Below, piece after piece: positions 7,803-58,800 of a stretch of 64,000 nt of DNA (positions are counted from its first letter, which is position 1; each line of letters opens with the position of its first letter). This stretch comes from an uncultured virus (IMG/VR IMGVR_UViG_3300045996_002278) (taxonomy: Duplodnaviria > Heunggongvirae > Uroviricota > Caudoviricetes), in IMG/VR virus record IMGVR_UViG_3300045996_002278. The stretch is one strand, 5' to 3'. Position numbers and translations under genes: made by a program. A model generated the notes under the pieces. That model was not told the origin of the DNA and ran no database searches. It saw only the letters and a program-made list of their open reading frames with translations.

Positions 7803-8213
7803 TTACTCTTCCTCCTTACGACGGTCCATAAAGGGACCATGCTTCGTATAGATACCCAGATTATGCCGCCGCCGAATCAACTGCTGGCGGAGTTGAATAA
7901 GATCGAATGCGAACCGACTCAGGGTAGCCTCGATCTCCCGGGCCATCTTCACCCCATCCCGGACGAACTGGACCTCCCCGATCCGAACCTTGTACTGGGC
8001 GGTCTTCTTCTCCATCGCCTGCGCGTGCCGTACCCCTTCAATCAGGGTGTCAATCAGATAGTCGTGCACGTCGTGCTCCGGATGGCCAGCCGGTTCCAAC
8101 ACCTGTGGTCCCCATATCTTTACCTGCCGGGCACGATCAGCGTCCCGCCTCTTCTCGTACTCGAGAATGGGCGGGTTCTTCTCTTGAAGCCGGTCCTCCC
8201 TGCGACGGTTCAT
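7803..8213 (-). CDS. hypothetical protein
   Basis: Start re-called at MNRRREDRLQ, ATGA overlap with the TS homolog stop. Confidence 0.6.
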   Translation of the reverse strand: MNRRREDRLQEKNPPILEYEKRRDADRARQVKIWGPQVLEPAGHPEHDVHDYLIDTLIEGVRHAQAMEKKTAQYKVRIGEVQFVRDGVKMAREIEATLSRFAFDLIQLRQQLIRRRHNLGIYTKHGPFMDRRKEEE

Positions 8214-9133
8214 TCGCTCCGCTGGCGTTCGTGATACAGCCCCCGGTACAAGGCGGGCAAGTCCTCCACCCGCTTGTGGAAGCGGAACGCCAGCACCTTC
8301 AGGTAGTCCAACCATACGTTGTAGTCGTGCTCCTTGTCACGTTCCCACGTATAGATAATGTCCTGCATGATTGCGGGGTCCTGGGAGGTGATGCCCAGGA
8401 AGAAGGTCTCCATCCAGGGTGGCATGGATGACAGGGGAGGCGAGGCGAAGCCCTCCGGGATCAGCCAGATGGGGTTGCATAGCTCCGCAACCGCCTGGGC
8501 CTTCTCGTAATGCTCCTCGTACAGGTGAAGGCTACCCACGTTGTGGGTGTAGCTGCCCAGACCCACGGCCAGCATCACCGCAAGGTACCGCTGGATCTGG
8601 GTGAAGGTGAACACGTCGTACGGGAATCCCAGCCACAGGTCGTTAGACCTCATCGTCACGACACAGTGGAGCAGGTCATGACGGATTAAAAACTGCATCG
8701 ACAGGGTACACGGGATGTCCCTGGTGCCCGCCGGTCTCTCCCGCCAGAGGTTGATCACGGCCTGGCGGCTGTCGCGGTCGTTCTGCAAGGTCCGAACCAC
8801 GTACTGGAGCTGCTCGACAACCTTGGGGCCATACGCCCCAAAGAAATGCATCCCATCGTCCGAGAACTGCCTGATGTTGCCATTGTACGGGGCGATGGTA
8901 CGCACGTCGTTCCGGCCGAACATGATCCATAGCCACTCCGCGACCTGGAACTGATAGTTGAGGTTCCGTTCCCGCAGGGTCACCACGTTGTACGCCGGGT
9001 TCTGGAGGACCAGGGTAGACCCGATCGTCTCCACCGTCTTCTTCCCTCGAGGGGAGACCCCGTGGCCCTCCCGGCACAGGCCATAGATCGCCCGACAGTA
9101 CAGGTCGTTAACTGTTGACGCGACGATTCGCAC
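8210..9133 (-). CDS. thymidylate-synthase-family enzyme, Asp-type (dCMP hydroxymethylase/methylase-like)
   Basis: GAYG, DSRQAVI, catalytic DIPC, MRSNDLWLGFPYD, GSLHLY. Asp replaces the dUMP-specifying Asn. Confidence 0.85.
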   Translation of the reverse strand: MRIVASTVNDLYCRAIYGLCREGHGVSPRGKKTVETIGSTLVLQNPAYNVVTLRERNLNYQFQVAEWLWIMFGRNDVRTIAPYNGNIRQFSDDGMHFFGAYGPKVVEQLQYVVRTLQNDRDSRQAVINLWRERPAGTRDIPCTLSMQFLIRHDLLHCVVTMRSNDLWLGFPYDVFTFTQIQRYLAVMLAVGLGSYTHNVGSLHLYEEHYEKAQAVAELCNPIWLIPEGFASPPLSSMPPWMETFFLGITSQDPAIMQDIIYTWERDKEHDYNVWLDYLKVLAFRFHKRVEDLPALYRGLYHERQRSE

Positions 9134-9437
9134 CGACTAACTCCTCTCCAAGCGCGAACATCTGGGCGCGCTGTCCCAGGTGCCGGGCCACTAACTCCAG
9201 GATTTTGAGTGACATCTCGAGAACCCGACGCCGCTGCTCGGTCCGGTGCCGGCGCTGATCCATCACCCGGAAATCCTGCTCGATCTCCCGACACAGCAGT
9301 TCCATGAGATGGACACTGTCCTGAGATCGGTGTTCCGCCAAAAGTACGAGGGCGTCCTGTTCTCCGTTCTCAAGAATGCGGTCCTCTAGCTGCATGCGCA
9401 GCTTGTCCGCACGTACCAACACCGATGCGACTGGCAT
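9108..9437 (-). CDS. hypothetical helical protein
   Basis: Start re-called at MPVASVLV after AGGAG. Confidence 0.55.
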   Translation of the reverse strand: MPVASVLVRADKLRMQLEDRILENGEQDALVLLAEHRSQDSVHLMELLCREIEQDFRVMDQRRHRTEQRRRVLEMSLKILELVARHLGQRAQMFALGEELVGANRRVNS

Positions 9438-9439
9438 AC

Positions 9440-10360
9440 CTACTCCTGCATGAAGGGTGCCTTCGTTGGCCCCTGAAGGGCCTGGGCCAGGGGGTATTCC
9501 TCCCCGGTCCGGAACCGGCGCCAATACGCCGGGTGCTCGAGGGCCGCGTAGGGAACTCGGGCCACCTTCTCGCACCACTCCGCCGCCACCTTGCCCAAGG
9601 CCACTACGTGGGCCGGGTCCAACAGGTCCATGAAGCCCGGGTGACACTCCGCGTCGGTCAGGTAGTCCCGGGCATTGATCCAGTACAGGGAGCGTTCGGG
9701 ATAGCCGACTCGCTCCAGCTCGTTGGTCAGCCACCAGCTCCCACCCTGCTCGAACTGCACGAATGGAAGCTTCGGCCCCTTGAGGTTGTCGTTGATCCGT
9801 TCCCCGACCATCAGGGTGACACCGCGGCGGAACGCGCCAATCCCTGGTCCCTCGTTCGGTGGCGGCCGGCGTACCTCGATCCGCTCCCGAACCTTTACCG
9901 CCTTCGATCCGACCGTGTAGTCCCAGTAGAGCTTGGGCAGGTCGGTCTGGAAGTGCCGGTAGCCGTCGTAGACCTGACGGTACCAGTCCTGATCCACCAC
10001 GTACTCACCACCCGCCAGGTTCCGCCGCGCCCAGTTCTCCTCTGCGATCTCATACCGAGCCAGGCAGATAAGAAGGACCGTGGACCGGGACAGGAGGTAA
10101 CGGTCCATCATCCGCTGGCGCGCCCGGTCGAACCAGGTTGGCCGTTGAAACAGGGGACCGTAGATCATCTCCGACGGGTAGAGCCGATCAAGCACCGCAT
10201 TCTCCGGCGTCTTTTGCAGACCTTCGAAGAACTTGAAGAACATGTTCTCCTGCGGGAAGTCCGGTGGACCCCACTTCACGTAGTGCAGATCCTGGAACGC
10301 CGGGGTCTGGCACAAGGTGGTCTTCCCACAGCCATCGGGTCCTTCAACCAGCGTAAGCAT
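9440..10360 (-). CDS. dNMP-kinase-like P-loop domain fused to a uracil-DNA-glycosylase-superfamily domain
   Basis: N-terminal VEGPDGCGKTT and LDR..PSE.IYG; C-terminal LMVGE, PF, WINA, VVALGKVA, HPAYWRRF. Confidence 0.8.
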   Translation of the reverse strand: MLTLVEGPDGCGKTTLCQTPAFQDLHYVKWGPPDFPQENMFFKFFEGLQKTPENAVLDRLYPSEMIYGPLFQRPTWFDRARQRMMDRYLLSRSTVLLICLARYEIAEENWARRNLAGGEYVVDQDWYRQVYDGYRHFQTDLPKLYWDYTVGSKAVKVRERIEVRRPPPNEGPGIGAFRRGVTLMVGERINDNLKGPKLPFVQFEQGGSWWLTNELERVGYPERSLYWINARDYLTDAECHPGFMDLLDPAHVVALGKVAAEWCEKVARVPYAALEHPAYWRRFRTGEEYPLAQALQGPTKAPFMQE

Positions 10361-10503
10361 GGTACTCCTTCTCCGTGGAAGGACTCGGTAATGCGACCAG
10401 CAATGCATGGAAACAGTCATTGAATCGACTGCCCTCGAGAATCATCATCCGGCCTTCAGGATCTACCGAACGGGGCCGAAAGCCGGTGTTCCGCTTCAGG
10501 TAC

Positions 10504-11247
10504 TCAGCGATCGCCGCCCGGGATGTTGGCGCCTGGATGCACGCCATCTTCCGGGGATACCCCTGGATCTCCAGCCACAGGTCCCACTTCTGTGGGGGTG
10601 TGACAGACCGCCACCTTGTGACCCTCGAACGAAGCCCGCTGAGCAGCAAATAGAATCCGGTGTAGGTCAGGAGGTTGCCAACCAGCCGGCTTAACCACGT
10701 CGAGCTTGTTCTTACGGATGGATTCCTCGTGCGACTGGACCCGAATCTTAGCCATGTTGGCATTCTGCACCTCATCCCATCCCAGTTGCCAGGGGAGTCC
10801 CATCATTGCCGCCGTACCGTGTGCGAAGTACACGAGGTCAATCAGGCTATCGAACACACCGGCCATATCACCGTTTCGTGCGTGGTCCACCATCTCGCGA
10901 AGCTCTTCCACCATCATCTGGATACGACCATAGAACTGATCATCCTGGTAGAAGGCACGCAGACCAAGGAGTTCGTCCTCAGCTCCCTTCAACAGGCTCC
11001 AGGCCGATAGTGCCTGGACCGCCTCGTGGGCGCCGGGCAGCAGCCGAGGAAACTCGGCGACCGGCAACCCGAACTTCTTCTGGAACGCCACCACGTCGTC
11101 AAAGTTAGACGGGGCGTGGGGCAGGTCATCCCCATTCCCGTACAACACGAACGCCGGCTCATGAATGACTTCGCCGGTCGCGTCCTCGACGGTCAGGTGT
11201 GGACGTGTCTCTTCCACCGGGTCTCTCCTTATGCTTGAGGTGTCCAA
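10504..11247 (-). CDS. MazG-like / PRA-PH all-alpha NTP pyrophosphohydrolase
   Basis: DVVAFQKKF, EELREM, DSLIDLVYFAHG, WDEVQNANMAK, KPAGWQPPD. Confidence 0.85.
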   Translation of the reverse strand: MDTSSIRRDPVEETRPHLTVEDATGEVIHEPAFVLYGNGDDLPHAPSNFDDVVAFQKKFGLPVAEFPRLLPGAHEAVQALSAWSLLKGAEDELLGLRAFYQDDQFYGRIQMMVEELREMVDHARNGDMAGVFDSLIDLVYFAHGTAAMMGLPWQLGWDEVQNANMAKIRVQSHEESIRKNKLDVVKPAGWQPPDLHRILFAAQRASFEGHKVAVCHTPTEVGPVAGDPGVSPEDGVHPGANIPGGDR

Positions 11248-11371
11248 GGCCGTGTCGCTCGATCATGTAAAACACCGTCCTGAGAGACAGCCCCAGCACC
11301 CGGGCCATCTCTCGCCGGCTATGGGTCTGCAGAATCACCTGGGACAGCAGCAGCTTTTCCACCTCCCACAT
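11159..11371 (-). CDS. Fis-like helix-turn-helix protein
   Basis: EKLLLSQVILQTHSRREMARVLGLSLRTVFYMIERHGL. Confidence 0.6.
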   Translation of the reverse strand: MWEVEKLLLSQVILQTHSRREMARVLGLSLRTVFYMIERHGLGHLKHKERPGGRDTSTPDRRGRDRRSHS

Positions 11372-11397
11372 GATCTCTCGGTAGCCGCCAAAGGCGG

Positions 11398-12366
11398 TCA
11401 GTCCGGCCGGCAGATCCATATGTTGTTGCGGCTGTGATCCGGGTACAACGGCGCGAGGAAGGTCGACATCACCTCGTTCCCGTAGTACGCCTGCAAAGCG
11501 GTGAATGTTGACAAATGCTCCGGCGTCAACTGCTTCTTGAGAACGTTGACGGAGGCGAAGGTTCCGAAACGCCGTTCGACGGCCCATCCGTTGCCCTCCA
11601 GGGTTGACTGCAACTCAGGGATCGTGTACTCGTGAATGTGGTTCCGGGCACGGAACCCATCGAACACCGGGGTAGACAGCATCAGGACCCCGGACGGCTG
11701 CCCCAACGCCCTGTTCGGCGCCATGTTGATCAGGGCACGCATCGCCTGAAGAAGCCGGATACCGTCTGCCACGCTCATGTGCTCGATCACCTCGAAGCAG
11801 GTAATCAGCTCGAACGGGTAGCCCTCATCCTTCATCAGCTCCTCGTACCGCGAGGTGAGGTCGAACTCCTCATACAGCCCCACCATCGCCCGGCGGTTCT
11901 TGGTCTTGATCCGGTTCATGTCCACGCCAACGTAACGACCGGGGTAGTTGGCGTTGATGCCACCGATTAGCGCCTTGTAGAGCGGAATCTCAGGACCGCA
12001 GCCCACATCAAGAACAGAAGTAACGTCCCTGTTAATGACGTGGCGCGTCGCAAAACCCCAACGAAAGAAGTGCGAAGCGTAATCGCGGTGGACGATCTCT
12101 CCATGGAAATCCTCCGTGAGGTAGGTCTGGTCGAACCGCCGCGGCTCCCGGTCTTCCTTCCGCTTAGATCGGGCCTTCTGTTCCGGGGGAAGCACCTGGA
12201 GGTTATGGCCGGCCGACACCACAAGCTCTGGCGCGGTAATCTGGCCGATCTCCTCAGCCGCTTTCTCCGGGCTCTTCTTCTTTTTCTTCTTCGACTTCTT
12301 TACGGGAGGGTTTTCCTCCAGACCCTCCGCGTACGTATCGGTGTGGTACTCGGCAGCTTCACCCAT
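11398..12366 (-). CDS. class I SAM-dependent methyltransferase
   Basis: VLDVGCG, YVGVD, ITCFEVIEHM, LMLSTP, HIHEYT; Lys-rich N-terminal extension. Confidence 0.85.
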   Translation of the reverse strand: MGEAAEYHTDTYAEGLEENPPVKKSKKKKKKSPEKAAEEIGQITAPELVVSAGHNLQVLPPEQKARSKRKEDREPRRFDQTYLTEDFHGEIVHRDYASHFFRWGFATRHVINRDVTSVLDVGCGPEIPLYKALIGGINANYPGRYVGVDMNRIKTKNRRAMVGLYEEFDLTSRYEELMKDEGYPFELITCFEVIEHMSVADGIRLLQAMRALINMAPNRALGQPSGVLMLSTPVFDGFRARNHIHEYTIPELQSTLEGNGWAVERRFGTFASVNVLKKQLTPEHLSTFTALQAYYGNEVMSTFLAPLYPDHSRNNIWICRPD

Positions 12367-13457
12367 TATGCGGTCTTCCTCCCGTAGACGCCCCCGAGAA
12401 GATTCACGACGTAGAGCCGGGGCTCGGGCTCAGGAACGTTCGCGTCCAGGGCGGCCCTTACCTGCGAGGCGAGCCACTTCCCGACAGGCGGTAACACAGC
12501 CCTGGCGATCTGGGCATAGCAGACAGTAACCTTCCCCTGGAACTCGTAATCGTACGGATAGCCACAGAGAAGCTGCTGTTCCTTGATCGACAGGTGGCGG
12601 ATCTCGGTCGGGTGGTATAGGTGCTGCCCTCCCGTCACGGTTGGACTGTGCTTGTCGAAGTGGACCCGGGCGTGAAGGAATCCGGGGCGGGTGAACCGAT
12701 ACCCCTGGACCGACAGCTTGACATTCTTCGCGTACTCGGACTCCTCCCACATCTCCATCAGCTTTCCACCACCCCGGGGCGCGGGGTTCTGCTCCAGGAG
12801 AGAGGCGATGACCTTGCTGATGTTTCCATGCGGGCCGATTGGCTTACCCTCCATGGGCTTCCAAGCATCTGAAACCGTCATGTAGGGCTCGTCGGGCGGG
12901 GTGATCGGCAGCGCCACCCGGTGGGCCAGGAAAAAGAACCGCTTCCGCGGCTGGGCAAGTCCGCACTTCTGACCGTTGAGAATCAGGTGGGTGACCGAGT
13001 ACCCGTTCGCCAGACAGAAGGCCGTCTTGTCGTCGACGAACTGCTTGCCGGCCGTGTAGGCACGAGCCACCGACTCCCAGGTGAACGCCTTCGGCTGCAG
13101 CTCGAGCAACAGCTCGAACAGCCGGTCCGTGCACTTGGTCCGTTCATCCGACAGGTACCGGCCCTTGTTGTGGTCTACCGTCGCGTCCTTGCCCAGGGTC
13201 GGCTTGTGGCCGGCCGTAGACCAGGGGGCGCACGGCGGGTTGCCATACAGCCAGTCCACCGAGCCAGCGGTCTGCTGGATCGGCCAGTTCTCCTGCCCCA
13301 CGAACACGGGGAGGTCCGGCATGTTGTGGCGTACGGTGGGAACCCCGAACGGGCCTTCCTCGAAATGCGCGAGCACCTGGAAATGCTCTCGCACTCCCAG
13401 GGTGAACCCTCCGGCGAAGATATATGCGCCGAGGGCGGTGGGTTGACTCTCCGTCAT
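12366..13457 (-). CDS. DNA cytosine-C5 methyltransferase homolog with atypical cofactor motifs
   Basis: Motif IV GNPPC and motif VIII QPRKR intact; motif I YIFAGG, motif VI ESV and motif X QIARAV diverged. Confidence 0.85.
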   Translation of the reverse strand: MTESQPTALGAYIFAGGFTLGVREHFQVLAHFEEGPFGVPTVRHNMPDLPVFVGQENWPIQQTAGSVDWLYGNPPCAPWSTAGHKPTLGKDATVDHNKGRYLSDERTKCTDRLFELLLELQPKAFTWESVARAYTAGKQFVDDKTAFCLANGYSVTHLILNGQKCGLAQPRKRFFFLAHRVALPITPPDEPYMTVSDAWKPMEGKPIGPHGNISKVIASLLEQNPAPRGGGKLMEMWEESEYAKNVKLSVQGYRFTRPGFLHARVHFDKHSPTVTGGQHLYHPTEIRHLSIKEQQLLCGYPYDYEFQGKVTVCYAQIARAVLPPVGKWLASQVRAALDANVPEPEPRLYVVNLLGGVYGRKTA

Positions 13458-13696: not shown

Positions 13697-13767
13697 GCCT
13701 TCTTTCCACAGCCACAGTCTGTAGCCGTCCGCGATAGCGTTACGGTCAATACCCTTCTTGTATCGCC

Positions 13768-13956
13768 TCACGGCTTCTTGATCGGGGTCACGTTAATGCA
13801 GACCTGGCAGCGACCAGCCGTGGCATGTTCCTCACACACGAACCGGTGGCAGGTGTTACATTGCTGGGCCTGGTTGATGCATCCGTATACTAAGCAGCTG
13901 GTCATGTAGCGGCCGTCCCCTAAGGAAATTGGCTGTCTTGAACTATCGTCCTTCAA
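13768..13956 (-). CDS. small Cys-rich zinc-finger protein
   Basis: CLVYGC...CNTC...VCEEH...CQVC. Confidence 0.6.
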   Translation of the reverse strand: MKDDSSRQPISLGDGRYMTSCLVYGCINQAQQCNTCHRFVCEEHATAGRCQVCINVTPIKKP

Positions 13957-13989
13957 TTATCCCCCTACATCAACCCCATCGTTAAAGGG

Positions 13990-14480
13990 TGGGCGGGGAT
14001 GACCGCTACTGACCCGCAAACCCGGTAGACGCCTAGCAGGATAATAAGCGCAGCCAGCGCCTCTTTCTGAGGTTCCCTGATCACGTCCTTCCCCACTTCG
14101 CCGCGTTTGAATCCTGCATCATGGGCTGTGTCAGGCCTCGCATATCTGGAGCTGGGGTCTCGCAACCCTCTATTTCCCACGGAAGAGCCCAGGGTATGTA
14201 ATCCTGGGGTGCCTAACGCTGGCGATTCCGTGGCAAGCCGCCTGCACGCACCAAGTAGGCGTTAGTCTACTCGGCCCTTAACTATTCGCGGGCTCCATTT
14301 TAGTTTGGGGTAGTGGCGATCCCTGTTAGTTAGATCGCTCCTCGCTGGGCTATCCTAGGTCACCAGCGGACCGGCAGCACACACGGCCGGACACGTTTGG
14401 GCCAATTGGTGGACATAGGTAGTTAGCCACTAGTCGCTCACACCTACACCAACGCCTTTTACGGCGCCTCACTACCCCAA
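13990..14480 (-). ncRNA. candidate large structured ncRNA (three closed multi-hairpin domains)
   Basis: No credible ORF. Closing helices 14470-14480/14305-14315 (11 bp) and 14292-14297/14147-14152; many internal hairpins; a 7-bp pseudoknot. Confidence 0.6.
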
Positions 14481-14481
14481 G

Positions 14482-14606
14482 GGGCCAGAGCAGGAATCGA
14501 ACCTGCGACCTCCGCCTACTACTCCCGCGATCTTCTCGTCTGCAGCAAGAGCAAGAATGTACCCTGCGGTTTCGGGCGGTGCTCTCCCAGCTGAGCTATC
14601 TGACCC
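14482..14606 (-). tRNA. tRNA-like gene with a 58-nt insertion replacing the anticodon loop
   Basis: Acceptor GGTCAGA/TCTGGCC; D arm TAGCTCAGCTGGGAGAGC; anticodon stem CCGCC/GGCGG; variable AGGTC; T arm GCAGG-TTCGATT-CCTGC. Confidence 0.8.
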
Positions 14607-14680
14607 AAGACCTACGTACGCCAGAACCCGTCGAACTGACGTACGTAGGTAAACCTACCCACGGAGAAACGGGTAGGGTA

Positions 14681-15319
14681 TTACTCGGTCTCGGCCGCTT
14701 CCTCCTTCTTCACCTTCTTCTTACGGCCGCCCTCCTTGATCTCGCCGGCGTCGACGAGCTTCTTGCGGTAATACGCGATATGCCGCTCATCCGCGTTGGA
14801 GGTCGAGACCTTCTCCTTCACCTGCTTGAGGATGACTTCATCGGAGAACCCGCGCCGCAGGCCGTTCCGAATCACGTCAGCCGCGGTCACCCGCTGAGTC
14901 TTCTCCCCCTTCTCCTTCTTACCGCTGGTGCTCCGCTGCTTGCGAGTCGCGGTTCCGGACGCCATACCTTCCCCTCCTGAAGTTTGCGGATCGGCCTTGA
15001 GCATCGCGTCGTACGCGGCCAGGACCTTCTCCGGTGGTTCCTCGCCCTTCAGATCGCGATACCAGGCGAGTTGGACAGTGGCCTGGACGATCTTCTTCAT
15101 CGAAGACACGTCCCGGTCCACGGTGGACAGCGAGTTATACGCTTGGATGATGTCGGAGGTCGCCATCTTGCCGACCTCGTTGAACGTGGCCAGGATTCCA
15201 CGGCACAGGGTGAAGGTCACCCCTCCGATGGTCGTCGTGGCCAGGTGAGCCTTCGGGTCGTCGCCGTCCGTCGAGTTGTCTCGCGGCGCCTCCCCCTGCG
15301 GGCTTTCCTGCTCCGTCAT
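14681..15319 (-). CDS. hypothetical protein with basic C-terminal HTH-like domain
   Basis: Start MTEQESPQ after GGAG; TAADVIRNGLRRGFSDEVIL...AYYRKKL; Lys-rich. Confidence 0.7.
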   Translation of the reverse strand: MTEQESPQGEAPRDNSTDGDDPKAHLATTTIGGVTFTLCRGILATFNEVGKMATSDIIQAYNSLSTVDRDVSSMKKIVQATVQLAWYRDLKGEEPPEKVLAAYDAMLKADPQTSGGEGMASGTATRKQRSTSGKKEKGEKTQRVTAADVIRNGLRRGFSDEVILKQVKEKVSTSNADERHIAYYRKKLVDAGEIKEGGRKKKVKKEEAAETE

Positions 15320-15373: not shown

Positions 15374-15419
15374 AATATAGGTCTTTTCCTCTACATGTCC
15401 ATACTTTGGATTGTAACAA
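15374..15419 (-). promoter_or_regulatory. sigma70-like promoter with upstream TTGTWACAA palindrome
   Basis: TGGACA-16 nt-TATATT on the minus strand, preceded by ATTGTTACAATCCAAAGTA. Confidence 0.6.
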
Positions 15420-17551: not shown

Positions 17552-17875
17552 TCACGCCGTAGGCTGAAGTAACTCCCCAGGCGGAGGGTCAGTTTCAATG
17601 GTGGTTCGGGTCGTTGTTCCATCTGGCCGCCTGATTGACATGGTGAATCGTGGATGGATCTGTGCCCAGATACGTACCGAGATCGGCCGCCAGGAATCTT
17701 CTCCCTGCCACGTATGGAACGCGACCGATCCCTCAATCCCAATGTGATGAACCCGCCACTGCTTGATCAGCTTGTTCTCCTCATCCTTGTAGGAGACAAT
17801 GATCGCCGGGTCATCCTTGCAGTTTACCTCATTCCGGTCAAGGATAGACCGGCCAATGCTGACGTAGTACGGCAT
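17552..17875 (-). CDS. hypothetical protein
   Basis: Start re-called at MPYYVSIGR, TGATG coupling to thyX. Confidence 0.55.
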   Translation of the reverse strand: MPYYVSIGRSILDRNEVNCKDDPAIIVSYKDEENKLIKQWRVHHIGIEGSVAFHTWQGEDSWRPISVRIWAQIHPRFTMSIRRPDGTTTRTTIETDPPPGELLQPTA

Positions 17876-18600
17876 CAGAACTCTTCCGGGGGATTCCCCG
17901 TCTGACTCTCTTCCCATGCGGATACCGCGACCGGTACGATGGGGTGGATCAGATCCAGCATGGCAAAGGCGTACTGTTGAATCTCGTACTGGGCGTGGGG
18001 GTCAACCCTAAGCCCCAAGAAATGAAACAGGTTCCGCAGGTTCAGGGTCGTGAACATGTGGGTGTAGGTGTTCACGGGCAGCACCATCCGGGCCAGCTCC
18101 CGGGGCCAACCGGTGCTTAGCAGCTGACGGTACAACCCGAACGCCGCCTCGCAATGGGTATTGATGTACTCCAGTTCCTTAGCCCTTTGCTCGGCCCACT
18201 CCCCCGGACTCTGGGTATTTCTTCCCTGCTTGTTAGTCGCGGACTGCATGCCCACGACCATGGGTGAGGGCAGGTAGAACTCCTCTGACAGGGCACGGTA
18301 GCGACCAGACAGCTCGTTGTACGACTGGGTCCGGTGCCGATGCCACTGGCGCACGACGAAGATCGGTGCCTTCACCTCAAACGTAAAGGTCACCGCCTCG
18401 AACGGGGTAAAGTGCTGGTGCTTGTACAGGTAGTGGATCAGCTTCTCATCCGCGTGCTCGTCCTCCCCTGCCCGCCAGGCCGCGGCGTACGATACCCGCG
18501 CGGCCCGGACGATGCTGAGGTCACTACCCATGTGGTCCACGAGACGGACATACCCATGGTCCAACACGGGCTTAAACGGGTCAGAACTCGGGCTGGTCAT
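17875..18600 (-). CDS. thyX: flavin-dependent thymidylate synthase
   Basis: RAARVSY, HFTPFE, RQWHRHRTQSYNELSGRY, ELARMVLP, HAQYEI. Confidence 0.95.
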   Translation of the reverse strand: MTSPSSDPFKPVLDHGYVRLVDHMGSDLSIVRAARVSYAAAWRAGEDEHADEKLIHYLYKHQHFTPFEAVTFTFEVKAPIFVVRQWHRHRTQSYNELSGRYRALSEEFYLPSPMVVGMQSATNKQGRNTQSPGEWAEQRAKELEYINTHCEAAFGLYRQLLSTGWPRELARMVLPVNTYTHMFTTLNLRNLFHFLGLRVDPHAQYEIQQYAFAMLDLIHPIVPVAVSAWEESQTGNPPEEF

Positions 18601-30932: not shown

Positions 30933-31600
30933 TAGGACAACGCTCCTACCCAGAGGCTGACCAGCTCGGGTGTTGGGGTGTCAGGGGTTCTATCGGCGGT
31001 CTGAATGCCGTAGACGGTAACGGTTCCGCTGGTGATGATCGCATTGTTGGTAACGATCAGCATCCCGGTCAAGGGCTCGGTGGTCTCAATCGCGGCAGCC
31101 CCGTACGCCGTAATGACGTGACCCGCGGTGCTGAGCCAGACGCACCGGTGATTGACCATCTTGTACAGGGTAGCGCTGTCGAAGTTATGGATCTCAAACT
31201 CAGCATTGAAGCTGGCGCCCGAGTCTTCATCCATACCAAAGGAAGCGGTACTGCCCCCCAAGATACGAATCTCTCGCTCTGTGGTACTGGCCGTGTTGGT
31301 GCTGGCCCCAGAGCTTGAGGTAGCGAGATGGCGCCAGGGGTAGTATCCCAAGCCCAGGAGGACACCCGCGGCATAGAAGGACAGGGTAAGGAATCCCTCG
31401 GTTGCCCCAGCGTCCAGGTCGAACCGAACCTCGTCTAGCTCCACGATGATCCGGGAGTAGCCCGCGAGGTCGAGCCCGGTGATGTCGAACACCCCGTCCA
31501 CCGGCGCGGAGTAGTGGGCGATGAACACCCAGTTATCTCCCGCCGGAACTACGGGGATGTCCGCTGCCCCGGACCCACTGGCCATAATTCCTGGGATCAT
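30932..31600 (-). CDS. virion/tail-associated protein, paralog of the 28657-29736 repeat domain
   Basis: MIPGIMAS start; FDITGLDLAGYSRI...GTVTVYG. Confidence 0.7.
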   Translation of the reverse strand: MIPGIMASGSGAADIPVVPAGDNWVFIAHYSAPVDGVFDITGLDLAGYSRIIVELDEVRFDLDAGATEGFLTLSFYAAGVLLGLGYYPWRHLATSSSGASTNTASTTEREIRILGGSTASFGMDEDSGASFNAEFEIHNFDSATLYKMVNHRCVWLSTAGHVITAYGAAAIETTEPLTGMLIVTNNAIITSGTVTVYGIQTADRTPDTPTPELVSLWVGALS

Positions 31601-32748
31601 GCAGCCTCCAGATTACCGAAGAGATCCCACTCGTTCGTTCCCACCTTCTTGGCGGTAAAGGCGGCGAAAGCGCCGGACGTGAGCAAGGTCTCAGGCGTGT
31701 TGATGGTCACCCCGGTATCGGCCACGAGGGTCACCTGGCCCTGGGTGCCGATCCCGTGAATCTCCGTCCCAACCGGATAGGCCACCGAGCCGTTGGCCGG
31801 GATGGTAAAGGCGCAGCCGGCCGCGTTGGTGAACCGGATGTAGGTATTCGCGTCCCCCAGGACCCCGGTGTAGGTTGCCCCCGACTGGGTGGCCACTGGG
31901 GCAGGTACCGGATTCGCCTCCAGGGCGTCAATTCTGGTGTCAAGGTTCTGACCTTCCAGGGTATCGAGCCGACCATCCAGCAGACCCAGCTCGGTGGCGA
32001 TCTCGGCCAGGGTATCGAAGGCCGCAGCCACGCCGTTCTTGAGAGCATCAATGGCCGCGGTCACGAAGGTCTGGGTCGCGATCAATGCACCCTCGACCGT
32101 GGGCGCACCCTGGAGGTCCACATCCTCCTTGATCGTGGGGTTGGGGTACGCTCCCTCGAGGTCACCACCCGCATCTCCCTCCGGTTCCGAGCCAGAACCC
32201 GGCCGAGCGAGAATCAGCCAGCGGTCATTGTCGCCGTCCGCCACGAAGATGGTTCCTTCGAACTCGGAGTCAAGGATGCGGCTCGCGGCACCACCAATTT
32301 CTTCAACACCATCCGGTTGAACGGTAACGGTATTCGCTGAACCATCCACCTTGAAGACGGCAAAGTGGACCCCATCTACATCTGCAGCCGGAGGCAGGGT
32401 GACGACTACCGGACCAGCCGTGGCGTCGACGGTGATGACCTCATCCCCCTCCACGATCGTGTAGTCCGTAGTCTTATCCTCGACCGGGGCGTGCTTGAGG
32501 CGGAAGGTACCTTCACCACCTTCGCCACCCTCACCGATCGCAGCCTGAACCCAGGCGTCATTGGCCTCGTTGCGCACGAAGATACCCAAGATCTCCGTCC
32601 AGCCAGTATCGGCGTCGGTCTTTATCCAGGGCATTCCGGCCACCACGATGGTCGGCCAGGTGGTGAACGGGTCGGTGTTCCGGATGAATGCGAAGCCTGG
32701 GAACACGTTGAACGGCTGATTCATTACCGCTTGGTAAAGGCCAGGCAT
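31597..32748 (-). CDS. tail fiber-like protein
   Basis: KTTDYT...VDATAG.V.VTLP, AGGDLEGAYPNP, AFDTLAEIA, and C-terminal KVGTNEWDLFGNL. Confidence 0.7.
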   Translation of the reverse strand: MPGLYQAVMNQPFNVFPGFAFIRNTDPFTTWPTIVVAGMPWIKTDADTGWTEILGIFVRNEANDAWVQAAIGEGGEGGEGTFRLKHAPVEDKTTDYTIVEGDEVITVDATAGPVVVTLPPAADVDGVHFAVFKVDGSANTVTVQPDGVEEIGGAASRILDSEFEGTIFVADGDNDRWLILARPGSGSEPEGDAGGDLEGAYPNPTIKEDVDLQGAPTVEGALIATQTFVTAAIDALKNGVAAAFDTLAEIATELGLLDGRLDTLEGQNLDTRIDALEANPVPAPVATQSGATYTGVLGDANTYIRFTNAAGCAFTIPANGSVAYPVGTEIHGIGTQGQVTLVADTGVTINTPETLLTSGAFAAFTAKKVGTNEWDLFGNLEAA

Positions 32749-58056: not shown

Positions 58057-58201
58057 GGGTAAGACTCTATGAACTGGTGGAGCTCGGATGACACCCCCTA
58101 GTTCAGGGTTTAGAGATCTTACTACACACTAGAGGAGGAAAGCTACAGAAATTTCTAGAAAAATTTTGGAGGGTGCCCCCTGGACCTGGGGCTGTATCCC
58201 G

Positions 58202-58366
58202 TTATACGAGAACGCAATGCCTATTTGAGAAGCTTCCCCTACCAGGGTTTCGAAGGCAATCCCGAAGGGTATAGGTACGTCAGTGCACCTGCCTCCTAAT
58301 ATCCGTACCCTGGATATGAATGTTCTAAGTACAAAGCTTTTTCTAAAACTTTAGTTTCCCGTATAG
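58202..58366. repeat. cis element, copy 2
   Basis: TTATACGAGAA, CAATCCCGAAGGGTA, AATATCCGTACCCTGGATAT and TTTCCCGTATAG in the same order as at 24987-25136. Confidence 0.65.
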
Positions 58367-58399
58367 GATACGCGTGCCGATACAGTGGGGCGTCAACGT

Positions 58400-58800
58400 T
58401 TCATTATGAAAAATACCCCTCCCATACCTTATAAATATTCATCCATAATGTATAATTATAAATTGAAATGTATAAATGAACCTAAGTCCTTTAAAATCAA
58501 TAAGTTATAAATGATCCTGGAATGGCATTATGCATAATGTGAATAAAAAGTAAACGAAATGTATATTTATGAATAGGATTAATGGGTTATGAAAACAGCC
58601 TATCTTAATACAAAAAAGTTACTGGCATATACATATTGAATTTCTTATATTCATTTCAAGTTAAATGATTAATAAAAATTAGTTAGTCAATAGTAATTAA
58701 AATTGTTACAAAACAAAGTATTGACAAAAAGATAATAAACGATTAAATTATTCCTAAGTTAAATGAAAGGAAAATACAAATAAGAATAAAAAGTTTGAGA
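58400..58800. other. very AT-rich non-coding island with an IHF consensus site
   Basis: Abrupt composition shift; AATCAATAAGTTA at 58495-58507 fits WATCAANNNNTTR. Confidence 0.7.
58703..58749 (+). promoter_or_regulatory. strong early sigma70-like promoter
   Basis: TTGACA-17 nt-TAAATT, AT-rich upstream region, TTGTTACAA palindrome. Confidence 0.75.

Follow-up and report, generated by a model that had tools for sequence, protein, structure and literature searches.

What does a phage make from several hundred nucleotides that carry no gene and lie directly behind a tRNA-like gene? The gap that raises this question runs on the minus strand from 14481 to about 13906 (~575 nt) in the 64,000-nt DNA of an uncultured tailed phage from soil (IMG/VR record IMGVR_UViG_3300045996_002278; Caudoviricetes), the whole of which was analysed and is called the window here. 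The minus strand is the coding strand of the genes in this region and of most genes of the window. A first-pass annotation had read positions 13990-14480 as about 500 nt of structured non-coding sequence in three domains (A, B and C), forming either one large non-coding RNA (ncRNA) in the manner of the GOLLD and ROOL RNAs or three tandem RNAs released by tRNA processing. The analysis presented here favours a chain of separate RNA modules, with a tRNA-linked stable small RNA and a translational-control hairpin, over one giant RNA, and we assign to this reading a probability of roughly 0.45. Followed along the minus strand, the chain is read as hairpins H1 and H2 and a tRNA-like body; domain A comes next, then possibly domain B, a spacer of little structure in which a small open reading frame (ORF) of doubtful standing lies, and lastly a hairpin termed D.

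The gap is non-coding. No Pfam family was matched by five small or flanking ORFs, none of the three small ORFs had a match in PHROG, and coding scores from a three-periodic Markov model, for which 42 ORFs of the phage served as training set, were negative in all six frames over 14650-14140, the flanking real genes scoring +7 to +19 bits per 120 nt with the same model. The sole positive value in the gap, +6.1 bits, falls at 14110-13991 in the frame of the ORF 13965-14180, which is weighed below. Within the window only two gaps are free of a minus-strand ORF of at least 70 aa, namely this one and 58095-58753. The non-coding half of the first description is borne out by these results, while the structured half does not extend to the stretch as a unit: the 502 nt folded whole on the minus strand gave a z-score of -1.01 (17 of 100 shuffles as good) and on the plus strand -1.69.

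A cmscan comparison with Rfam had been proposed along with the description. It returned no family besides tRNA, neither for the interval 13700-14800 at E<=10, where the tRNA was accompanied by three chance-level matches and where neither GOLLD nor ROOL appeared, nor for the whole window at gathering score, where both of the only two matches were tRNA. Group I and II introns, ribozymes, riboswitches, transfer-messenger RNA, RNase P RNA, 6S RNA and HEARO/omega RNA were dropped as readings for the same lack of an Rfam match. Retrons, diversity-generating retroelements and IS110 bridge RNAs were dropped as well, there being no reverse transcriptase or recombinase adjacent.

Among the three domains originally drawn, domain A is the only robust module, and it is described here with its 3' linker and with the contig that covers it.

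14305..14480, minus strand: domain A, RNA of 176 nt with several hairpins and a perfect closing helix of 11 bp
14298..14304, minus strand: A/U-rich, single-stranded linker ACUAAAA between domains A and B, from the sequence and unpaired in the folds
14318..14471, strand not shown by the contig: 154-nt contig of the soil metatranscriptome run X8, depth 13.8, 4 differences

The closing helix (TTGGGGTAGTG/CACTACCCCAA) is, as had been claimed, 11 bp long and a perfect inverted repeat (11 of 11, 14305-14315 with 14470-14480), and the domain does begin 2 nt past the tRNA discriminator at 14482. Folded on its own, domain A reaches -75.0 kcal/mol with a z-score of -2.89 (3 of 200 shuffles as good), and in a 781-nt context 10 of the 11 closing pairs keep probabilities of 0.91-1.0, the outermost pair standing at 0.51. 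The five hairpins attributed to its interior were recovered as real hairpins in the minimum free energy (MFE) structure, together with a 2-bp mini-hairpin. The background yardstick for these values was a set of 186 mostly coding 180-nt segments of the same phage, whose z-scores average -0.42, with the 5% quantile at -2.55 and the lowest value at -3.59, 3 of the 186 lying at -3.2 or lower; the fold energies of domains A and B are in the tail of this distribution and are suggestive, not decisive. Domain A is put forward as a candidate stable small RNA.

Sequencing data from soil bear on this candidate. A 1101-nt stretch was screened by shared words in public runs, and the contigs of four runs (X3, X4, X5 and X8) were compared with it. 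Thirteen public runs share words with the stretch; two soil DNA runs contain all of the words and may be the runs from which the stretch came, and six soil metatranscriptome runs (X8 and five more) contain 0.06 of them each. Only one contig of X8 falls on the 1101 nt, namely the 154-nt contig inside domain A, and none on the flanking genes, the tRNA-like gene or domains B and C, although the uncovered part proves nothing. A depth of 13.8 on one compact domain alone is the pattern that a stable small RNA would give. The listed differences of the contig are three (14420 T>C, 14440 A>T and 14441 C>T, plus strand), and together they keep the fold of domain A, with 54 of 56 pairs shared and a free-energy change (ddG) of +0.8. 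Short contigs identical to the phage came from the DNA runs X3, X4 and X5, and one of them (14429-14579) crosses the border between the tRNA-like gene and domain A.

Domain A is further distinguished by its palindromes. ACUAGU fills an 8-nt hairpin loop (G-ACUAGU-G) of the MFE structure, CCAAUUGG is part of the central junction, and CCUAGG is located within a hairpin loop or at its margin. Of the two palindromic loops in the first-pass annotation, the ACTAGT loop can therefore be kept as it was given, and the CCTAGG loop holds in the centroid structure while being partly drawn into a weak stem in the MFE structure. Six-base palindromes are not enriched overall in 14680-13900 (14 observed, 12 expected). 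Across the 64 kb, the 48 copies of CTAG are a five-fold deficit relative to the 227 that base composition predicts, a Markov estimate giving 72; ACTAGT and CAATTG occur once each, both within domain A, against 8.7 expected each; and CCTAGG occurs 7 times against 20.9 expected, with one copy in domain A. The 22 under-represented palindromes have 72 sites in total, three of them in domain A where 0.2 would be expected, and at least three rare palindromes are held by 413 of 63,823 segments of 176 nt, in five places. In shuffled sequences one palindromic hairpin loop arose in 5.3% of cases, and two or more in 0 of 300. The genome-wide avoidance suggests restriction avoidance, and the palindromes of domain A suggest in turn that they were either retained for function, which fits the idea of self-pairing, or brought in with a module that recently came from elsewhere. 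The first-pass idea that the palindromic loops could drive multimerisation is thereby supported indirectly. GAATTC, GGATCC, GGGCCC, ATCGAT, TAGCTA and TATATA are absent from the 64 kb.

On the 5' side of domain A the following elements were found.

15374..15401, minus strand: promoter-like site TGGACA-16-TATATT, 10/12 matches in a consensus scan
14654..14677, minus strand: hairpin H1, 8 bp followed by UUU, directly 3' of the stop codon of the gene for a 226-aa protein (MFE structure of 14680-13900)
14610..14650, minus strand: hairpin H2, with 15-nt arms of 93% complementarity (inverted repeat I2; MFE structure), ending 4 nt before the tRNA-like gene
14482..14605, minus strand: tRNA-like gene, match to Rfam RF00005 at 49.2 bits (gathering score 29)

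In the tRNA-like gene all three of the acceptor, D and T arms are complete, CCA is not encoded, and in the Rfam alignment 57 nt replace six positions of the anticodon loop. ARAGORN misses the gene in its default mode and in intron mode calls a tRNA-Thr(agt) with a 53-nt intron, a reading that leaves CCGCC-UAGUA-GGCGG and not a decoding anticodon loop of seven bases; as it stands, the gene cannot decode. G14606 and C14482 could form an extra -1:73 pair. Similar generic tRNA halves are joined without the 57-nt insert in contigs of the soil DNA runs, and the small-share runs X4 and X5 gave nothing beyond such halves and short exact pieces of the phage. Since a tRNA was found in 0 of 32 helicase-neighbourhood loci of related phages (32 of 160 loci checked), the tRNA and its flank appear to be a lineage-specific module. 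Hairpin H1 may be a weak terminator or a 3' stabiliser of the mRNA, and was not flagged by the terminator scan. Hairpin H2, rich in TACGTACG palindromes, could serve as a cleavage site for RNase III or stabilise the 3' end of the upstream mRNA. The consensus scan gave no promoter-like site between 14681 and 14606, and a read-through transcript would likely start from the site at 15374-15401, which precedes the 226-aa gene.

Beyond the linker, the support for the remaining two domains is uneven.

14147..14297, minus strand: domain B, a possible second module with a z-score of -2.55 and a loop-loop match
13965..14180, minus strand: open frame of 71 codons from GTG, coding doubtful, with no Shine-Dalgarno (SD) sequence at GTG 14180 and an alternative start at GTG 14084

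The sequences TGGAGC and GCTCCA, said to close domain B, are present at 14297 and 14152, and only 3 of 200 shuffles fold as well as the isolated domain. In the 781-nt context the probability drops to 0.02 for the closing helix and to 0.15 for the first hairpin, values that count little, since a fold of that length is a poor judge of modular RNAs and did not recover the tRNA cloverleaf either. The complementary pair CTAACGC (14265-14259) and GCGTTAG (14219-14213), earlier taken for a pseudoknot, does lie in two hairpin loops of the isolated fold; these loops, ACUAACGC and AGCGUUA, match over 6 nt, or 7 with the closing base. A loop-loop match of at least 6 nt was obtained in 0 of 300 shuffles, and on the modelled fold the two loops could form a kissing contact. 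Domain C, on the other hand, has to be abandoned as drawn: its z-score is +0.53 (135 of 200 shuffles fold as well), and the ensemble shows the 5' strand with other partners and the 3' strand paired to 13920-13906, which belongs to the hairpin around the start of the next gene.

13897..14017, minus strand: hairpin D, a long-range helix with an MFE of -52.8 kcal/mol and a z-score of -4.71, 0 of 200 shuffles as good
13956..13985, minus strand: promoter-like site TTAACG-18-GATAAT in the apical part of hairpin D, 9/12 in the consensus scan (sigma-70-type)
13768..13905, minus strand: Cys-rich gene of 45 aa, its start masked by hairpin D, with an identical 45-aa protein on record

The helix of hairpin D (inverted repeat I3) joins 14009-13995 to 13920-13906, with 14 of its 15 pairs at a probability of at least 0.98, and past a one-base bulge it extends across the AUG at 13905. 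In the predicted fold the 45-aa gene has its start codon and an SD-like AGGGGA buried in a stable helix, these being the elements (SD sequence and/or AUG) by which a hairpin that sequesters a ribosome-binding site is recognised. GGAG-type sites stand 6-12 nt upstream of the starts of other genes of the phage, and the ribosome-binding site should therefore matter at the 45-aa gene. Judged on this predicted structure, hairpin D is a putative translational-control hairpin. The 45-aa protein is similar to individual units of long Cys-rich repeat proteins (639-840 aa, with 4-14 matched stretches); the four weaker matches have E-values of 1.4e-11 to 4.4e-4.

From these elements we infer the following course of events for the chain of modules, including its cleavage sites, the source of its stability, self-pairing, promoter use and any function in trans. 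Domain A would be transcribed within a read-through RNA from the 226-aa gene. Its 5' side would be freed by host tRNA-processing enzymes, with RNase P acting at the 5' end of the tRNA-like body and RNase Z or an equivalent after the discriminator; both could act on the tRNA-like gene because its three arms are intact. On its 3' side, release would come from cleavage within the A/U-rich linker ACUAAAA (14304-14298). The 11-bp terminal helix would shield both ends, so that domain A would accumulate as a stable small RNA, and through the exposed palindromic loops (ACUAGU and CCUAGG) and the junction (CCAAUUGG), kept against the genome-wide avoidance, its copies may pair mutually or bind a partner. 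Domain B may be a second module, held by its loop-loop kissing contact. In the read-through RNA, hairpin D would hide the ribosome site and the AUG of the 45-aa Cys-rich gene, whereas a transcript from the promoter-like site inside hairpin D would lack the 5' arm and leave the start free; ribosomes on the frame 13965-14180 would likewise run through the 5' arm and open the helix. The earlier idea of tandem RNAs released by tRNA processing is thereby retained for domain A, on account of its closed fold, its RNA-library contig and the intact tRNA arms, and is not retained for the rest of the stretch.

A number of observations weigh against the chain of modules. The fold energies are unexceptional, comparable z-scores being found in the coding background (n=186), and the domains were folded on boundaries that the first-pass annotation had already picked. 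On the plus strand domain A folds nearly equally well (-70.4 against -74.8 kcal/mol), so that energy leaves the strand unsettled. The palindrome and loop tests were devised after the data had been seen. The RNA cover consists of assembled contigs of one run, which show neither strand, ends nor level, and an RNA library can contain DNA; the 154-nt contig stops 9 and 13 nt short of the closing helix, and 43% of random triple changes keep the fold equally well, which makes the contig variant uninformative on structure. The terminator scan gave no intrinsic terminator on the minus strand, and the promoter calls are consensus matches only. Finally, no homologue was obtained by any route, and with none there is neither covariation nor evidence of conservation. 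The distant setting of blastn gave no match in 50,697 phage records and none in plasmids, and blastn and nhmmer gave nothing in 80, then 160, helicase-neighbourhood loci (IMG/VR, JGI). Exact or gapped DNA patterns had 0 hits in viral contigs and genome contigs, collections that are without the window itself. Nothing came from three related virus records, searched in full at the DNA level and with covariance models, and a single-sequence covariance model of domain A run on the window and 99 of 162 loci returned only itself. The literature consulted gave no described relative, and a paper on T4 SegB contained nothing about small RNAs.

Four other explanations were considered beside the chain of modules. 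The whole ~500 nt could be one large ornate ncRNA of the GOLLD/ROOL kind, with three domains and a capacity to form multimers. The adjoining tRNA-like gene in a phage would suit it, GOLLD and ROOL being described as often having such neighbours, as would the non-coding character of the stretch, the palindromic loops and the loop-loop match; yet neither GOLLD, ROOL nor any other Rfam model is matched at E<=10, the 502 nt do not fold as a unit and the strands of domain C pair elsewhere, the 3' end is better explained as the leader hairpin of the next gene, and RNA-library cover falls on domain A only, even if the uncovered part carries no weight. This first of the two original proposals is accordingly set aside as very unlikely. 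A plainer account has no trans-acting RNA at all: the region would be a structured intercistronic leader of a polycistronic mRNA, in which the tRNA-like body and the hairpins set processing or stability and from which the contig derives as a decay-resistant fragment. It gains from the lack of a promoter-like site between the 226-aa gene and the tRNA-like gene and of a minus-strand terminator after them, from H1 and H2 flanking the 3' end of the upstream gene, from hairpin D, whose predicted fold clearly acts on the start of the next gene, and from the fact that no conservation of domain A is known. A closed multi-hairpin domain of 176 nt nevertheless exceeds what a 5' stabiliser needs, and the palindromes kept despite genome-wide avoidance and the depth of 13.8 on domain A alone in run X8 speak against it as well. 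This account is a serious one, if on balance unlikely.

It is also conceivable that part of the stretch codes for a small membrane protein in the frame 13965-14180, perhaps from GTG 14084 (~40 aa), and that its translation opens hairpin D and so couples the 45-aa gene. The frame has the only positive coding score of the gap and includes a hydrophobic stretch, it traverses hairpin D's 5' arm to a stop 58 nt upstream of the AUG at 13905, and GTG 14084 is preceded by an SD-like GGGGAAGGA. That motif, however, is just 1-2 nt from the GTG, the score of +6.1 bits per 120 nt is below those of the real genes here, and the frame has no protein homologue and no Pfam or PHROG match and is not on record as a called protein; moreover, it would account for the 3' third only and not for domains A and B, and we consider it doubtful. 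A feature at the level of DNA, such as a replication origin, a recombination site, or a recently acquired module of tRNA and flank with palindromes derived from its source, appears improbable. Lineage specificity of the module among the 32 related loci, palindromes that the rest of the genome avoids and a location within the replication gene block speak for it; against it, the stretch has a G+C content like that of the genome and is without iterons or an A+T-rich stretch, unlike the gap at 58350-58800 (19-33% G+C, with repeats), no copy of the tRNA 3' end bounds it, and an RNA-library contig covers domain A. A replication origin in particular was set aside on composition and repeats, the A+T-rich gap at 58.4-58.8 kb suiting that role better.

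With the chain of modules retained, its members can be set beside known systems. The nearest functional analogues of domain A appear to be RNAs C and D, small RNAs that phage T4 makes from its tRNA region and whose roles are given as unknown (PMC3014915). The likeness is that of a non-coding structured phage RNA of 100-200 nt with a tRNA neighbour on the same strand, probably cut from a shared precursor; it is drawn by description and not by sequence, the type being a loose class with no curated family. Here, in contrast, a single tRNA-like gene with a 57-nt insert in its anticodon loop takes the place of a tRNA cluster, and processing is a matter of inference. For hairpin D, the comparison is with the T4 genes e, soc, 49 and I-TevI, in which the SD sequence or AUG is sequestered in long transcripts and a late promoter lies upstream (PMC3014915). 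As in those genes, the SD sequence and AUG of a small phage gene would be held in a long helix only in transcripts from upstream, and a candidate promoter beyond the 5' arm would yield transcripts that lack the arm; the differences are that the site here is a sigma-70-type consensus match only, and that the apical part is long (74 nt).

GOLLD (RF01998) and ROOL (RF03087) are described as lying near tRNA islands in phages and as forming cages held by kissing loops, GOLLD being often longer than 800 nt with many stems (P1-P27); the remark in the first-pass annotation that they often lie beside tRNAs agrees with these descriptions. The present locus shares with them the setting among phage genes, with a tRNA-like gene that ends 2 nt upstream, as well as multi-stem domains, a candidate loop-loop contact and palindromic loops that possibly bridge copies. 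It differs in size, its gap measuring ~575 nt and its robust unit 176 nt against ~580 nt or more than 800 nt, and with it in the number of stems. It differs also in architecture, since the 500 nt do not fold as one unit, the three-domain layout is not kept, there is one candidate loop-loop contact and covariation support is lacking here.

Processing signals of tRNA-like shape are a general means of releasing a neighbouring RNA, as in MALAT1 and mascRNA. The resemblance is that the adjoining RNA would owe its end to a tRNA-shaped element, cut by RNase P and RNase Z; MALAT1/mascRNA is a eukaryotic system, however, and in the phage the cuts are deduced from the intact tRNA arms only. The dimerisation initiation site of HIV-1 is a hairpin for kissing-loop dimerisation, with a self-complementary sequence of six bases centred in its loop and flanked by purines. 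The G-ACUAGU-G loop of domain A is likewise self-complementary over six bases and purine-flanked, but it measures 8 nt and not 9, the biology is unrelated, and dimerisation is here a prediction.

Phage RNAs adjoining tRNA genes, such as T4 RNAs C and D, GOLLD and ROOL, are an old puzzle, none of them having a known function. The locus adds a compact example, 176 nt long and placed right after a putative processing signal of tRNA shape, that has a first hint of expression in nature and is directly testable; self-association of domain A in particular is made easy to test by its palindromic loops, through loop mutation. Hairpin D, on its predicted fold, clearly exemplifies the masking of a gene start by a leader hairpin in a phage outside the T4 group. 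Domain A is at the same time an orphan of an uncultured soil phage. A bolder proposition, which we hold to be a long shot, is that domain A represents a new class of phage small RNA, cut free by host tRNA-processing enzymes and self-assembling through the palindromic loops and the junction palindrome into dimers or higher RNA-only assemblies, so as to be a miniature counterpart of the GOLLD and ROOL cages that is abundant enough to be assembled from soil metatranscriptomes.

With reference to the wider setting, PHROG matches in the window include DNA polymerase, primase, two helicases, two thymidylate-synthase-like proteins, terminase, portal and tape measure, and the stretch sits inside the replication gene block. 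The G+C content is ~58% genome-wide and similar in the stretch. The phage is distant from those on record: its best helicase relative among the helicase-neighbourhood loci (IMG/VR and JGI) has 46% identity, the cultured-phage DNA polymerase nearest to that of the window has 36% identity, and the upstream 226-aa protein has no relative in IMG/VR or phage records and found only itself among 5.8 billion proteins, on 3 contigs of which the longest has 74,527 bases. The second gap without a long minus-strand ORF (58095-58753, core 58350-58800) has a G+C content of 19-33%, repeated AATGTATA(A/T)TTAT-like motifs and inverted repeats, folds very weakly (about -17 kcal/mol per 180 nt) and looks like a replication origin or a promoter/regulatory cluster. 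At 32171-32250 on the minus strand ARAGORN calls an 80-nt tRNA-Glu(ctc) within the ORF 31597-32748, which has tail and virion-protein PHROG matches; this call is probably false, because Rfam reports no tRNA there at gathering score. The minus-strand intervals 8210-13457 and 17875-18600 hold a cluster for nucleotide metabolism and modification by Pfam and PHROG, with genes for a ThyX-like protein, a second thymidylate-synthase-like protein, a thymidylate-kinase-like protein, a nucleotide pyrophosphohydrolase, a C5 cytosine methylase and a second S-adenosylmethionine (SAM) methyltransferase, and this cluster may be a DNA-modification module.

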